Origin: a virus
Lineage: Duplodnaviria > Heunggongvirae > Uroviricota > Caudoviricetes
IMG/VR virus record: IMGVR_UViG_2531839579_000022
Length of the DNA stretch: 6,218 nucleotides
Direction: 5' to 3' (one strand)
Part shown: in pieces, positions 1,659-6,218 of the stretch
How the letters are laid out: the number at the start of each line of letters is the position of its first letter
Position numbering within the stretch: position 1 is the stretch's first letter
The notes under the pieces: generated by a model
What the model was told of the DNA's origin: nothing
Database searches by the model: none
Seen by the model: the letters and a program-made list of their open reading frames with translations, nothing else
Position numbers and translations under genes: made by a program

Positions 1659-2447
1659 TTAAAAATCAGCCTGACTCGGGATCAGTTTTTGTATCGTAGC
1701 TGTAACGTATTTTGCCTGGTGACGGGCGTCATCCAGTGCATTGTGGCGCACGCCTTCGAATGGAATAACGGTTCTGGCATCAAAGTCGATTGTTTTTCCC
1801 AGCTCAACGATTGTGCGTACATCGCGATCGTTGTGGTAGCGCCACGGGCAGGGGATGTCCAGACGTTCGTATGAGGTGCGCAAAATTGCGTTATCGAAAG
1901 TCGCACCATTACCCCATACCTGAACGAATTTTTCATCTGAGTATTCGTTGATGAACTCCCGAAACTGCGAAAGGGCATCCTTCAGTTTTACCTGGTCTGT
2001 TAAAATGGCAGCTCTGGCTTCACTGGACTGCTTCAGCCACCATTCGATGGTTCCACCGTCAGGAACAGCCCCTGTATTCATTGCGTCAGTCAGACTGATA
2101 ACGATATAAAATACTGGCCCGATTTCCCCTGTTTGTGGGTCGAAGAAAACCGCACCAATAACCACGATGGGCGCATTGGTGTTGGTTCCCATTGTTTCAA
2201 GGTCGATCATCAGGTGGTACCACACTCTGCTGGTGGATGTGATAACGTGATGACCGTTCACCGAAATTAAGGAATCTGCCGTCTCGCCAGTTTCACTATC
2301 GCTGGCGTGGTCCTGAGCGCTGCCAGCATTCTCCTTGTGTGGATGTTCAGCGCCTTCCATTTTCTCCGAATCGTCTTCCTGAACTTCAACCTGGTTCTTG
2401 TCATCGAATGTTTCCTGGTATGTTGCGTCGCCCATCACCGCCCACAT
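1659..2447 (-). CDS. DEDDh-family (DnaQ/RNase T-like) 3'-5' exonuclease with an acidic N-terminal extension
   Basis: ORF of 262 aa. Exo I motif in [11 protein letters not shown] (D-x-E after a beta-strand); Exo II-like [12 protein letters not shown]; Exo [16 protein letters not shown] (His plus Asp, DEDDh type). The start is uncertain. ATG 2447 overlaps the upstream ORF by 47 nt and has a poor SD. ATG 2360 (MEGAEHP...) has GGAG 3 nt upstream and no overlap. A start at Met80 (2210) is excluded because it would remove the beta-strand before D-x-E. Confidence 0.8.
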
Positions 2448-3378
2448 CAGGGCAGTTGCCGCCCCGTCTGCCGCAGGCGGTGCAGATCTTTTCCGGTTCC
2501 TGTTGCCACTGGTTCAGGTGTTTCGTTTCTGGCTCGTTTTGTAACGCATTTGGGCTGTTTTGTTCCGCTTTCTGGTAGTTCCGTTCCGATTCATGCTGGT
2601 TCTGGTTTACAGAATCGCGGGTCTGGATCCCCTTAACCCATTTCGGATCATTCGGGTCGCTAATCCCTGCAACAAATTCTCCGCGAGAGGCAGCAAGCAA
2701 CTTATCGGCGTCAGGCTGGCTGATATTGGCTGCCTGCATAATTTTGTTTACTTCGTCAGCGGTAACTTTTACCGGCCCTGGTTGTGCGGTCGTGTCAGAT
2801 GCACCAGTATTTTGTTGTGAACCTGAGTATGTACCGTTTTTGCGGGCGAAATATTCTTCTTTCGTGATTTCAGTAGCCCCGGCAGCCAGTGCCTTATCCA
2901 GACCAGAAAGTTTGTTTGCGCGACCGTATTTTTCGCCATCCTTGTCGGTGAAGAGGAAGTAGAACGGCCCCTCACGCTCTACAGATGGTTCGACTTCCAC
3001 TTTGCATTCGGTTTTTTCGTTGTCCGGAATTGCCGTTTCCACTGCATCAGTTTCTGGTACTGGCGACGAGAGAGTATCAGTTGCGATCTGATTTGTTCCT
3101 TCATCTTCAAACACGCCCTTTGTAGTCAGGTATTCAGTAATGTATTTGTTCAGTACCACAGGGTCTTTGTGAATGTCGATCGGACGCTCACGGACAAGGC
3201 CAAAAATAGTCTGGCGGTCGTAGCGAAGGGCATCAGGCTGTTTGCGATTGATGCGAGATACGCTTCCAGTCTTCGCGGTCGTTGTCGATAACTTCATTTT
3301 TTGCCCAGCGATGGATGCTGCCGTCAATGTTTCCGGCATCCACATCACCAGGCCAGAGAGCGTAGGCCAGTTCATCAT
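2401..3378 (-). CDS. Hypothetical prophage protein with Q/N/E-rich tail; likely the C-terminal segment of a larger frameshift-disrupted gene
   Basis: ORF of 325 aa in the track. The sequence from about residue 45 onward ([40 protein letters not shown]...) looks like genuine protein. The first ~44 residues ([38 protein letters not shown]) are low quality and overlap a better-looking reading frame (track ORF 3233..3493). See the frameshift finding. Function unknown. Confidence 0.5.
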
Positions 3379-4127
3379 CCAGTGTTTTCCATGTCTGCTT
3401 GTATTCGCGACGAATGGCGCAGTGACAGGGGGATTTTTCCTGTTGAGTTTTCAGTGTTCTGCCGGTTGACTCTGGCGTAGGCGAGATCAACAACAGACGT
3501 GTATTTCCCGGTTTCTTTGCGTTCGGCTTCGCGACGTTTTTTCCAGGTGCGTAATTCTGTCTGGATCTCAGGCCATTTTGCGCCCGGCTTACATTTATGT
3601 TTAACCCACCCGATGGCGAACAGCTTTAGTTCTGAATACATGACGTTAACTTCAGGCATTTTCATCAATGCTTCAACGATATGCCCGTCGAATGTTGCCA
3701 TGTCTTCCTGCAACAATTCCTGTGCGCTAATCACCATATCAACGGTGATGTTTTCACATGTACCGAACTTAACCAGGACCGCGTTCTGTACTTCAAGGGA
3801 CAGCTTGTCAAAATTGACGTTCATCGGATCGGATTCTGGTTCGACCGGAATAAAGGAAGCGGATTCCTCATCCCAGCGGTTTTCCTGCATATATTCAGCA
3901 TCCCAGGAATCGAGGGCAGGGCGGGGTATACCGGGTTTATCCTCGCAGACAAGAAATTTATAAGCGCAGTCCTGAGCAGCCGGATAATGTTCCAGGAATT
4001 GCCAGTGAAATTTTGCGCGGGCGCGACGTTCATCACCGGCTTCAATGGCAGTGGCTACAGCGACGGCACCTTCTTCCTTTATTGCCTGTTCGTCCGGAAT
4101 GGCGGCGCAAATAAAGACTTTACTCAT
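3375..4127 (-). CDS. Hypothetical prophage protein; likely the N-terminal segment of the same frameshift-disrupted gene (occupies the ydfE position of the Qin dicB operon)
   Basis: ORF of 250 aa. ATG at 4127 is preceded by GAGGT with an 8-nt spacer. Protein-like composition through about ...YARVNRQNTENSTGKI, then a junk-like tail ([18 protein letters not shown]) that starts at a G5/C5 homopolymer (plus 3428-3432). Directly downstream of the ydfD-like gene in the operon. Confidence 0.6.
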   Translation of the reverse strand: MSKVFICAAIPDEQAIKEEGAVAVATAIEAGDERRARAKFHWQFLEHYPAAQDCAYKFLVCEDKPGIPRPALDSWDAEYMQENRWDEESASFIPVEPESDPMNVNFDKLSLEVQNAVLVKFGTCENITVDMVISAQELLQEDMATFDGHIVEALMKMPEVNVMYSELKLFAIGWVKHKCKPGAKWPEIQTELRTWKKRREAERKETGKYTSVVDLAYARVNRQNTENSTGKIPLSLRHSSRIQADMENTG

Positions 4128-4206
4128 TTTGTTTTACCTCATTACAGATTTAAGGGTGAACAAATCCCTGCCATTGCTGGCATGTAAAAATGAAACTGGA
4201 TATTAA

Positions 4207-4410
4207 TTACGGCGCTGTTTTTAATCCTGCCGGGATTTCGTTATTATCCATGCGAATAACTTTCTCGACCGGATAACAGTTACCAGGAATTTTCTGTTCT
4301 GCTGCGGCAGCCATACATTCTTTCATTGAACCATATATACCAGTAACCACATCAACAGGTTCGCCAGTATTAAGAAAAACAGTCAGAGTGAGGGCAACAG
4401 CAGTATTCAT
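4207..4410 (-). CDS. ydfD: Small membrane protein, YdfD-like (Qin prophage lysis protein family)
   Basis: 67 aa from the ATG at 4410. That ATG overlaps the dicB stop as ATGA (stop 4407-4409, start 4408-4410). SD AAGGA sits 8 nt upstream. The N-terminal hydrophobic segment MNTAVALTLTVFL is consistent with a single transmembrane helix. Size and position directly after dicB match K-12 ydfD (63 aa). The track's longer 85-aa version starting at 4464 has no usable SD. Confidence 0.6.
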   Translation of the reverse strand: MNTAVALTLTVFLNTGEPVDVVTGIYGSMKECMAAAAEQKIPGNCYPVEKVIRMDNNEIPAGLKTAP

Positions 4411-4595
4411 TGCCAGTATCCTTTTTGCATCGGGCGTAAACGTGCCAGCATTGAAAGAATGCATATTTTATTTAATAGCTCCCGTTCGTGTTTTCTCTTG
4501 TTAATGGCATCTTCAGTAAATACAGGGTTACTGATAGTGACACCAATTTCAAAACAACCTTCAGACGTATTAACGTTTGGTAATAACGTTTCCAT
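4407..4595 (-). CDS. dicB: Cell division inhibitor DicB
   Basis: 62 aa from the ATG at 4595, preceded by GAGGA with a 7-nt spacer. The sequence METLLPNVNTSEGCFEIGVTISNPVFTEDAINKRK...LNKICI.SMLARLR matches my recollection of K-12 DicB (62 aa, MinC-dependent division inhibitor). The track ORF 4407..4691 extends upstream to a GTG but has no SD there. Lies about 180 nt downstream of the DicF-like terminator, as in Qin. Confidence 0.82.
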   Translation of the reverse strand: METLLPNVNTSEGCFEIGVTISNPVFTEDAINKRKHERELLNKICILSMLARLRPMQKGYWQ

Positions 4596-4612
4596 TATCG
4601 CGTCCTCAACAA

Positions 4613-4774
4613 TGAATTTTGTGATGCGGTGCCTGGTGCCTCCAGGTGACGTTAACCAGTTAATAATTAACGCCGGATACAGAGAACCCACCCATAAGAA
4701 CCAATACGGAAGTCAACTGGCCTTTTTAACTGTTCCGCGTGCGCTGAGCCGCATTCACCGCATCACAAAATTCA
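4613..4774. repeat. Perfect 19-bp inverted repeat (TGAATTTTGTGATGCGGTG / CACCGCATCACAAAATTCA) enclosing a 124-nt spacer
   Basis: Left arm 4613-4631 and right arm 4756-4774 are exact reverse complements; the bases immediately outside both arms do not pair. Located between the DicF-like terminator and the dicB SD. The spacer holds a CCTGG-N5-CCAGG hairpin and a 13-bp palindrome GTTAATAATTAAC (4659-4671). Confidence 0.85.
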
Positions 4775-4778
4775 CTTT

Positions 4779-4821
4779 AAAAGGGGCGGGTATCATGGGA
4801 AAAACAAAACGGATACCCGCC
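4779..4821 (-). terminator. Putative Rho-independent terminator (3' end of DicF-like RNA)
   Basis: 10-bp perfect GC-rich stem (plus 4785-4794 GGCGGGTATC paired with 4812-4821 GATACCCGCC) with a 17-nt loop. On the minus strand it is followed by CC-UUUU (plus 4779-4782). The U-tract is short and the loop long, so termination is probably partial. On the plus strand it is followed by A-rich sequence, so it is not a plus-strand terminator. Confidence 0.45.
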
Positions 4822-4835
4822 AAAAGGTAATCAAC
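4779..4835 (-). ncRNA. dicF: DicF-like small RNA (ftsZ-repressing sRNA family), diverged variant
   Basis: Minus-strand sequence ...UUGAUUACCUUUUGGCGGGUAUC-CGUUUUGUUUUUCCCAU-GAUACCCGCCCCUUUU. The 5' part (UUUGGCGG.UAUC.GUUUU) resembles my recollection of K-12 DicF (..CGUUUGGCGGUAUCAGUUUUAC..). Position is between the ydfC-like gene and dicB, as in the Qin dicB operon. Ends in a GC stem plus U-tract. The 5' end is not determinable from sequence, since in K-12 it is made by RNase E processing. Confidence 0.55.
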
Positions 4836-5161
4836 ATGGGTTGTTGCAGCGGGATTGTCACTCAGGCGTATGGTCAACCTGACAACCCGGTGGACATTTG
4901 CGAGGAACGGAGAACCCCCGCCATACTTACCGCCGCGCCATTTCGCGGAGTGCCACAACCGGAAGCGCACGGTCGACGAAAATTTAACGACAGGCTATCT
5001 ATGAACCAGCAACCTCGCCGTGCGCTTTCGCGTTATGCTCTGACTTTTCAGAGAAATATCCTTTCAGTAAACTGTCAGTGCCGGATGCTCACCCGTGTCC
5101 GGCGCACACACTCCACCTCACCCGTGGAGAACTCCTTAATTACCAACCCTCAGGAGGGTGA

Positions 5162-5395
5162 ATGTTAAAATCAACGCTTATTGCTAAATGCCTTTATCAA
5201 AATCGCATGGTAAGCAGCATTTCAATAGGCGAGTCTGCAGTTAAAAGTATTTTCGAAGAGTACTTTCCCGGGCATGATTTTAATAAATGGAATACCAAAT
5301 TACCGCCAGCAGTTTCAACGCGTATTCTGAAAGCAACTGAAAGAGCAAGTACAATTCGCGTTAACTATTTCATTAAAGATTTGTGGGATCTTTGA
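5162..5395 (+). CDS. Hypothetical small protein (77 aa); the only plus-strand gene candidate, convergent with the 135-aa ORF
   Basis: ATG at 5162 is preceded by a strong SD AGGAGG (5152-5157) with a 4-nt spacer. AT-rich coding region, in contrast to the GC-rich segment directly upstream. Not hydrophobic; no recognisable motif. Its 3' end overlaps the 3' end of the minus-strand 135-aa ORF by 23 nt (5373-5395). Real coding status is uncertain. Confidence 0.45.
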   Translation: MLKSTLIAKCLYQNRMVSSISIGESAVKSIFEEYFPGHDFNKWNTKLPPAVSTRILKATERASTIRVNYFIKDLWDL

Positions 5396-5780
5396 TATCC
5401 ACAGAGCCTAAAGTATGTGCATATGGATGTGCTATTGTGCGCCCTCGCAGATTTGCATCATTTTCTAAATTCACTGAACGAAACAGGGCATCAACAAGGC
5501 TCTGTACAATGCAAAGGCAATCGAAGACTGTCGCCGTTTCTGTTTTGATTGATGAAAGAACATGGCCATTCACGCAAACAGAAATTACCCGTTTATTAAC
5601 ATCGCTTTCCTGCTTTTGATTATCAGAACCATATAGCCCTGAAAAAGCATTGCGCACATTACGAACCATATTATCGATGGTTTCTTTTTTGGTGTATGCC
5701 GGGTCAATTTTCACCAGACTATCACCGAGTGTCGTTGCAGCAATTATCTGGATTTCTTTTGGTAAATCTTTAAATTCCAT
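5373..5780 (-). CDS. Hypothetical protein (135 aa), no counterpart recalled in the K-12 dicB operon
   Basis: ATG at 5780 is preceded by GAGG with a 6-nt spacer and lies 22 nt downstream of the stop of the 72-aa ORF, so it is operonic. Soluble-looking sequence with no transmembrane segment and no recognisable catalytic motif. Moderately AT-rich. Confidence 0.6.
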   Translation of the reverse strand: MEFKDLPKEIQIIAATTLGDSLVKIDPAYTKKETIDNMVRNVRNAFSGLYGSDNQKQESDVNKRVISVCVNGHVLSSIKTETATVFDCLCIVQSLVDALFRSVNLENDANLRGRTIAHPYAHTLGSVDIKDPTNL

Positions 5781-5802
5781 TATTAGCCTCGTTGGTTAAC
5801 CA

Positions 5803-6021
5803 TTAACGTGGGTATGTAATCATTCTGGCAATGCTTAATGCCGCTGCTTTTTCCAGATTGGTGATATCCTGCTCCAGAGCGGACAGATTTTCAGCCTGCT
5901 TAGCCCTGGCTTCATTGGCCCATTTCAGGTCCTGCGCAGCCTTAATTTTCTGGTGCATCCACTCATAAAGTTCATCATCGGTATAGTCTGGCGCGATGAT
6001 GACGGGTTCTCGTTTCTGCAT
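5803..6021 (-). CDS. Small hypothetical protein (72 aa), YdfC-like by size and position
   Basis: ATG at 6021 is preceded by GAGGAA with a 5-nt spacer. Predicted helical, coiled-coil-like sequence (KIKAAQDLKWANEARAKQAENLSALEQDITNLEKAAALSIARM). Same size as K-12 YdfC (72 aa) and in the same operon position; the sequence itself is not recalled, so no symbol is assigned. Confidence 0.55.
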   Translation of the reverse strand: MQKREPVIIAPDYTDDELYEWMHQKIKAAQDLKWANEARAKQAENLSALEQDITNLEKAAALSIARMITYPR

Positions 6022-6050
6022 ACTGATTCCTCGCGGTGCTGCTTCGCTTA

Positions 6051-6179
6051 TCAGCCGTTAGATTTTGCCGGGCTGGAAAGCGCCTGTATAAACTCACTGA
6101 AGCTGAGAGTTTCTTCGCCTTTGGCAAGGCCTTCGAAGTATTCTTCGTAAGCCTTTTCCATGATTGTGTCGAAATCCAT
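6051..6179 (-). CDS. Small hypothetical protein (42 aa), YdfB-like by size and position
   Basis: Not in the ORF track because it is short. Minus-strand ATG at 6179 is preceded by AGGTGAG with a 5-6-nt spacer; the protein is MDFDTIMEKAYEEYFEGLAKGEETLSFSEFIQALSSPAKSNG, ending at TGA 6051-6053. The frame stays open upstream to the window edge (VPVAGWKETQVSD), so a longer gene running out of the window cannot be excluded. Size equals K-12 YdfB (42 aa). Confidence 0.4.
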   Translation of the reverse strand: MDFDTIMEKAYEEYFEGLAKGEETLSFSEFIQALSSPAKSNG

Positions 6180-6218
6180 ATCACTCACCTGAGTTTCTTT
6201 CCAGCCAGCGACGGGCAC

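Follow-up and report, generated by a model that had tools for sequence, protein, structure and literature searches.

Related prophage genes

The closest described relative of the gene studied here encodes WP_000048591.1, an intact Qin-site prophage exonuclease of 826 aa found in the ETEC strains TW10722 and 602354. In TW10722 the intact copy spans 4881995-4884475. Its locus is arranged as rspB-int-xis-exo-ydfD-dicB, as it is in the window, by which is meant the whole 6,218-nt stretch of DNA that was analysed. The window is identical in DNA to this relative over positions 1-2441; missing bases aside, it has the same sequence at most sites to ~3830. It differs from the WP_000048591.1 gene by the lack of 12 bases, by scattered alleles of another copy and by a different right side from ~4600.

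The ydfE gene of the K-12 Qin prophage is orthologous to the window gene and lies in the orthologous position; the two share the N-terminal YdfE_N/YdfE_C domains. In K-12, ydfE really is truncated by IS2, whereas the breaks in the window are one-base losses found in no other complete genome. RecE (exodeoxyribonuclease VIII) of the Rac prophage is encoded at the same early-left operon position, and parts of the window gene match recE DNA at 84-88%. Unlike RecE, the window gene encodes a C-terminal nuclease of the DEDDh Rv2179c-like type (PF16473) rather than the RecE nuclease domain.

Errors in short-read assemblies that arise from collapsed repeats or chimeric contigs form a further point of comparison. 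As in such errors, the window holds a multi-copy, near-identical element at a contig end, with mixed alleles and with errors at inter-copy differences. It departs from the usual collapsed-repeat error in that bases appear to have been dropped, by a presumed assembler step, rather than miscalled. The frameshifts in the window gene are very probably a consensus artefact of a draft assembly in which reads from paralogous prophage copies were pooled; judged from sequence comparison, they would be error and not biology.

The gene and its missing bases

The whole gene, a Qin-type prophage 'exonuclease' of the ydfE family, occupies 1659..4127 on the minus strand, as delimited by end-to-end alignment with the intact genes of L001 (2359-4839), L087 (3159-5639) and L091-L093. 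The locus is the Qin prophage position adjoining rspB-rspA-ynfA-ynfB-speG; the adjacency to rspB bears out the Qin/ydfE affiliation that had been suggested for it.

In the window sequence the gene (4127->1659) is split into four pieces, with overlapping minus-strand ORFs at 3375-4127 (250 aa), 3233-3493 (86 aa), 2401-3378 (325 aa) and 1659-2447 (262 aa). The original prediction had described one gene in three pieces, at 2401-4127. The minus-strand frame changes that it placed at ~3431-3420 and ~3255-3247 are present, as are its ORFs of 250, 86 and 325 aa, and there is indeed a single gene; but this gene consists of four pieces and continues down to 1659, taking in the 262-aa ORF. Its length is 826 codons rather than the ~570 proposed for the ancestral ORF.

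Alignment to intact homologues shows that the window gene lacks 12 single bases, in five clusters that span 3431 to 2441: at ~3431, 3420, 3255, 3247, 2519, 2507 (two), ~2470 (three), 2448 and 2442. With these bases put back, the gene is an 826-codon ORF without internal stop. It measures 2,469 nt in the window and 2,481 nt in the nearest relative, to which it is 98.6% identical, with the 12 bases lacking. In a linear-gap alignment every loss is a single base and no extra substitutions are needed. The losses fall in at least nine places, and there are no insertions. Two indels of one base each had been predicted; instead, each of the two junctions then recognised comprises two one-base losses, 8-12 nt apart.

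The first piece keeps the authentic frame over 3432..4127 (minus strand; ORFs and alignment) and corresponds to intact residues 1-232, the YdfE_N/YdfE_C region; past 3431, the residues of ORF 3375-4127 are out of frame. In the alignment, deletion cluster 1 follows at 3418..3431 on the same strand, with loss of the A of ATCC-A-CCC and a C of TGCCGCC. Both sites vary among 78 homologues and also between copy A and sibling copy C, the two prophage copies described below. The first switch had been placed on the C5/G5 homopolymer at 3428-3432; it is no case of homopolymer slippage, and the run itself arises from the loss of the A, the homologues having ATCC-A-CCC. The second piece, traced by alignment and frame to 3256..3417 (minus strand), provides ~54 authentic codons within ORF 3233-3493. 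The ATGA at 3375-3378, which looks like a coupling of two genes, is coincidental as had been supposed, and intact genes read straight through it.

Deletion cluster 2 is aligned at 3246..3255 (minus strand), where two single G's are lost (CTC-G-GCATCAAT-G-CGC); at both sites L089 (copy C) has A where G is expected. The repeat-like look of 3245-3262, previously linked to the second junction, is a by-product of these two losses. The third piece is in the authentic frame over 2520..3245 (minus strand) within ORF 2401-3378 and represents the RecE-like middle region, as seen by alignment and with the NCBIfam RecE profile. The eight bases of deletion clusters 3-5, from ~2519 to 2442, are missing from the alignment at 2441..2519 (minus strand), and a CxxC-x9-CxxC motif (CTACGQSGGGNCPECG) is scrambled by their loss. 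The fourth piece, 1659..2440 (minus strand), encodes the C-terminal DEDDh 3'-5' exonuclease domain (PF16473, E=8e-69) and is 100% identical to closed genomes. The first and last pieces are in one frame (2469 nt = 823 x 3). After the 12 losses the last domain is still in frame; on the artefact reading this is a coincidence, with odds of 1 in 3.

Programmed ribosomal frameshifting or transcriptional slippage could in principle join such pieces, and the C5/G5 run at the first junction would suit it. This run is, however, made by the deletion itself, and at least nine separate shifts would be required, several of them 5-12 nt apart. All homologues have a single frame of 812-827 codons with no shift site. 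Programmed slippage had already been ranked as less likely in the original prediction; as homologues encode the protein in one frame, its probability is negligible.

The intact protein

In the bacterium itself the gene is most likely intact and encodes an exonuclease of 826 aa. This protein starts with a YdfE-type N-terminus and a RecE-like middle, which are followed by the CxxC...CxxC motif and, at the C-terminus, by the DEDDh 3'-5' exonuclease domain. The C-terminus matches PF16473 (Rv2179c-like DEDDh) with E-values of 8e-69 to ~1e-68 and 231-232 bits, against a Pfam gathering cutoff of 27. The DEDDh motifs MIDLET, ATFDNA and HNALDD are present in the translation; weak matches of this C-terminal domain to PDB entries 8kel and 8ken were also found.

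Residues 244-625 of the intact protein align with positions 267-602 of the NCBIfam RecE profile (NF007259). This match, confined to the middle region, reaches 275.6 bits where the cutoff is 1269; the protein does not qualify as a RecE equivalog. For the 250-aa product, precomputed matches to PF27430 (YdfE_N) and PF27432 (YdfE_C) are available; the local Pfam copy, which probably predates those models, gave none. An Rfam scan of the window returned nothing at gathering score, and DicF is absent.

Homologues in closed genomes

The region is widespread. In a megablast search with positions 2301-4250 as query, it was present in 4,790 of 5,426 complete E. coli genomes, usually under one annotated 'exonuclease' gene; the same holds in phages such as mEp460. 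It occurs at a median of 2 and a maximum of 10 places per E. coli genome, and strain 602354 has two copies that are identical across 2.3 kb.

Three homologues that were fetched have one ORF each, of 823-826 codons, and intact homologues of that length align, each as one gene, with all pieces of the window gene, far beyond chance. Intact ORFs of 812-827 aa are found in 79 of 80 IMG/VR homologues, and a protein identical to the intact one is known from 144 contigs. In closed genomes L091-L093, whose prophage at the rspB site is arranged in a similar way, the gene is likewise intact, at 826 aa. Since full-length, single-frame homologues span all junctions, the pieces do go back to a single ancestral ORF that small indels have interrupted, as the original prediction held. 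Two independent genes with these boundaries had been named there as the finding that would speak against a common origin; the homologues are single genes across the junctions.

Over positions 1-2441, the window shows no differences from closed genomes TW10722 and 602354, in which the gene is intact (826 aa, WP_000048591.1). All 12 losses lie in the 990 nt directly beyond this identical 2,441-nt flank. The junctions were searched for with a query of 259 nt taken from four window segments and trimmed so that every 28-mer covers at least one deletion; none of these 28-mers was matched in the set of 5,426 complete E. coli genomes, where the region occurs in more than 10,000 copies. In IMG/VR, three junction patterns spanning all five clusters likewise had no matches. 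A shorter pattern with the losses at 2448 and 2442 alone matched only L089 and L090 in IMG/VR, both of which are sibling drafts from the same pipeline.

One-base deletions often build up in cryptic prophage genes, and the K-12 orthologue ydfE is a true pseudogene, with IS2 interrupting it near the equivalent of window position 3363. A decaying pseudogene, in which the Qin-site prophage truly gained many one-base deletions in its exonuclease gene, was the favoured reading of the original prediction. The distribution of changes argues against it: 12 deletions, no insertions and about four substitutions are packed into 990 nt beside 2,441 unchanged nt, and the junctions occur in none of the 5,426 closed genomes. 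Together with the disagreement among same-patient assemblies described in the next section, this makes true decay of the gene unlikely.

Source assembly and sibling colonies

The window corresponds to the terminal 6.2 kb of draft contig AQBU01000168.1 (GCA_000358575.2) from the ETEC colony E. coli p0305293.11; the contig stops 2.1 kb past the gene. The p0305293 series consists of several colonies from one Dhaka patient in an ETEC study (PMC4462620; PMC4309559), sequenced as HiSeq 100-bp paired reads and assembled with Celera Assembler (PMC4462620). Isolates were clonal in 10 of 12 patients, and the two exceptions named are other patients (PMC4462620); on this basis the isolates of patient P0305293 are presumably clonal.

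Homopolymer errors of the 454 type were considered and rejected: the lost bases are mostly outside homopolymers and the data are Illumina.

Sibling assemblies were compared using one protein, P0040, and the IMG/VR contigs L089 and L090; the 258-aa internal product matched nothing but an unrelated metagenome contig in ENA. P0040 of p0305293.5 (502 aa) is, save for the initiator Met, an exact suffix of the intact protein; it reads through eight of the 12 missing bases, the stretch 2441..2519 being intact. Of the 12 losses, the contigs of p0305293.15 and p0305293.12 (L089 and L090, respectively) share just those at 2448 and 2442. These two losses are common to three sibling assemblies and absent from p0305293.5.

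The lesions are thus missing from, or different in, independent assemblies of what is, going by PMC4462620, presumably the same clone. A real clonal mutation would be shared among colonies, as the losses at 2448 and 2442 are among three of them, and these two losses could be read as support for a pseudogene. That colonies of the same patient differ in the lesions they carry speaks against it. The lesions are absent from all closed genomes and differ among same-patient colonies, which points to an assembly artefact. Sequencing or assembly errors had been listed as an option in the original prediction; this is the one that agrees with the absence of the lesions elsewhere and with the discordant sibling assemblies.

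Missing bases and allele differences between prophage copies

Copy A is the prophage at the rspB (Qin) site, as in the closed relatives. L089, from p0305293.15, has another integrase and another exonuclease domain type; it is therefore another prophage, copy C. L089 may itself be a partly blended consensus.

The missing bases coincide with sites that vary between copies. For ten of the 12, the alignment allows a position that varies within a set of 78 distinct homologues; the two invariant sites are the G at 3247 and one near 2470. In a test run, 12 of 14 gap positions (two of the 14 being an alignment artefact near the 3' end) were on polymorphic sites, a count reached in none of 300 random trials, in which on average ~40% of the deletions, treated in the same manner, fell on such sites. 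Copies A and C differ at six of the 12 lost positions, and at two more the base is likewise absent from L089. At the remaining four (one of the two at ~2507 and the three at ~2470), A and L089 agree, although three of these four sites are polymorphic elsewhere; to account for these losses, which L089 does not explain, one has to invoke a third copy or a misaligned layout.

Substitutions follow the same pattern. Seven are found in 2500-3830; all seven are copy-C alleles and all are isolated single sites (2572, 3086, 3155, 3187, 3672, 3705 and 3726). Some of these flips have A alleles on both sides at distances of 1-10 nt, as in A 3701/C 3705/A 3713 and A 3723/C 3726/A 3727. Neither the placing of deletions on inter-paralogue SNP sites nor single-site allele flips 1-10 nt apart would be expected of a decaying pseudogene. 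Allele switches every few bases fit a column-by-column consensus of mixed reads; recombination is not a credible source for them.

Two simpler assignments were tried and rejected. No single homologue examined as a donor copy explained all anomalies, the best candidates, L008 and L089, each accounting for 15 of 19. The deletions are also not differences between copies A and B of strain 602354, as these are identical across the whole affected stretch.

A biological origin at the same sites can be envisaged, in which a heteroduplex formed between divergent co-resident copies and faulty mismatch processing deleted some bases and patch-converted others. Deletions and allele flips at A-vs-C difference sites are compatible with this, and gene conversion between prophages is suggested by the 2.3-kb identity of two copies within one related closed genome. 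We know of no mechanism, however, that removes single bases at mismatches at such density. The deletion junction is in no closed genome, though thousands hold at least two copies; sibling colonies disagree; the data type and the assembler already account for the pattern; and the process has no independent support. It is a highly improbable source of the frameshifts. Were it true, it would represent a mutational route that deletes bases at mismatched sites and could inactivate a prophage gene in one step.

Proposed origin of the frameshifts

A consensus artefact could have arisen as follows. The p0305293 clone carries at least two lambdoid prophages whose exonuclease genes, of 2.5 kb, are near-identical; one, copy A, occupies the rspB (Qin) site, and the other, copy C, has a different integrase. 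Celera Assembler would have put 100-bp Illumina reads of both copies into one layout. Where the copies differ, the per-column consensus would mostly have followed copy A, sometimes followed copy C and elsewhere called no base at all. As an outcome, 12 single bases would be gone and four false ORFs created. The exact assembler step that dropped the bases is one that we infer.

Consequences for deposited sequences

The biological weight of these results is small; the gene, for a prophage exonuclease, is common, has been annotated before and occurs in intact form in thousands of E. coli genomes. They do call for caution with public drafts of the ETEC series, which hold false frameshifts in multi-copy prophage genes. 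Pieces made by such frameshifts have been deposited as separate proteins (ENG45341-3, ENG53845/6 and ENG45479). The annotation of the pieces as separate proteins in GenBank could be seen as favouring a pseudogene; proteins ENG45341-3 are fragments created by the assembly error. Pseudogene counts, pan-genome gene clusters and inferences of prophage decay drawn from such drafts will be inflated.

The diagnosis can be made without reads from two signs that occur together: single-base losses exactly at inter-paralogue SNP sites, and isolated single-site allele flips.

Alternation of alleles along the window

Beyond single sites, the window alternates between the two copies. It has the A allele at all 157 informative sites in 1660-2440, and mostly the A allele with the isolated C flips in 2441-3830. 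The C allele follows in 3839-4065, the A allele in 4101-4398, the C allele in 4417-4478 and the A allele in 4490-4572. The right-hand part, 4601..5650, is identical to copy C of p0305293.15 at 571 of 571 informative sites (compared with L089) and unlike copy A of the closed relatives. The contig can thus be recognised as a blend, or chimera, derived from two prophages.

Large-scale mosaicism alone was rejected as a proof of chimerism, as a window-like right-half order, including a 634-nt segment, is present at rspB in closed genomes L091-L093. These three genomes share the gene order of the right half, and their sequences differ from that of the window.

Prophage alleles and gene content

In the right two-thirds of the window (2441-6218), alleles switch back and forth between two prophages of the same clone, as seen by comparison with the rspB-site prophage of strain 602354 (L087; type A) and with the contig of the second prophage in sibling colony p0305293.15 (L089; type C). 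From 2441 to approximately 3830 the window is type A; C, A, C and A blocks follow. Positions 4601-5650 are identical to L089. Since alleles of the two prophages alternate and this stretch matches the other prophage, the gene order int-xis-exo-ydfD-dicB, as written, may not exist on any single DNA molecule.

The closed ETEC genome of 602354 also carries two prophages, at rspB (L087) and at potC (L001), with integrases unlike each other. Their exonuclease genes are 100% identical over approximately 2.3 kb (equivalent to window positions 1697-4005), while the flanks are unlike; such a pattern suggests that the co-resident prophages have recently undergone gene conversion or exchanged modules.

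A 634-nt segment (5149-5782) is missing from the rspB-site prophages of both TW10722 and 602354. Two overlapping ORFs lie in it, one of 135 aa on the minus strand (5373-5780) and one of 77 aa on the plus strand (5162-5395). The segment is found in other prophages, where the annotation is that of a hypothetical protein, with a frameshift in one record; its product has no Pfam family on record.

Exonuclease gene

The sibling assemblies p0305293.15 and p0305293.12 break the exonuclease gene into 578-aa and 255-aa products (L089, 2155-3891 and 1422-2201; p0305293.12 contig L090, 627-2363), deposited as ENG53846.1/ENG53845.1 and ENG45479.1. This split is false; it stems from two one-base losses (CCTGA-TGTGG-GCGG) that these assemblies share with the window. 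Further accessions from the same project (ENG31998.1, ENH52106.1 and EMW68520.1, the last from strain 2749250) list a 258-aa fragment whose sequence is that of the window itself.

Intact homologues contain a CxxC-x9-CxxC motif (CTACGQSGGGNCPECG) at residues ~547-562, which bridges the RecE-like middle region and the DEDDh exonuclease domain; the window counterpart lies at 2442-2500 (minus strand). Neither Pfam nor NCBIfam reports a match to the motif, which is likely to be a zinc ribbon.

The dicB region

In K-12 Qin, dicF is located between dicB and ydfC; in contrast, Rfam gives no DicF match anywhere from dicB to ydfC in the window. A sub-threshold Rfam match to the STnc100 sRNA (33.5 bits, where the gathering score is 47; E=5e-5) overlaps the dicB start region at 4618-4772 (minus strand).

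The mechanical ORF for ydfD (4207-4464, 85 aa) and the next one (4407-4691, 94 aa), both on the minus strand, have 58 nt in common. The genes as called are shorter (67-aa DUF1482 and 62-aa DicB, respectively), and their overlap is just 4 nt, the arrangement also seen in other Qin-type prophages.
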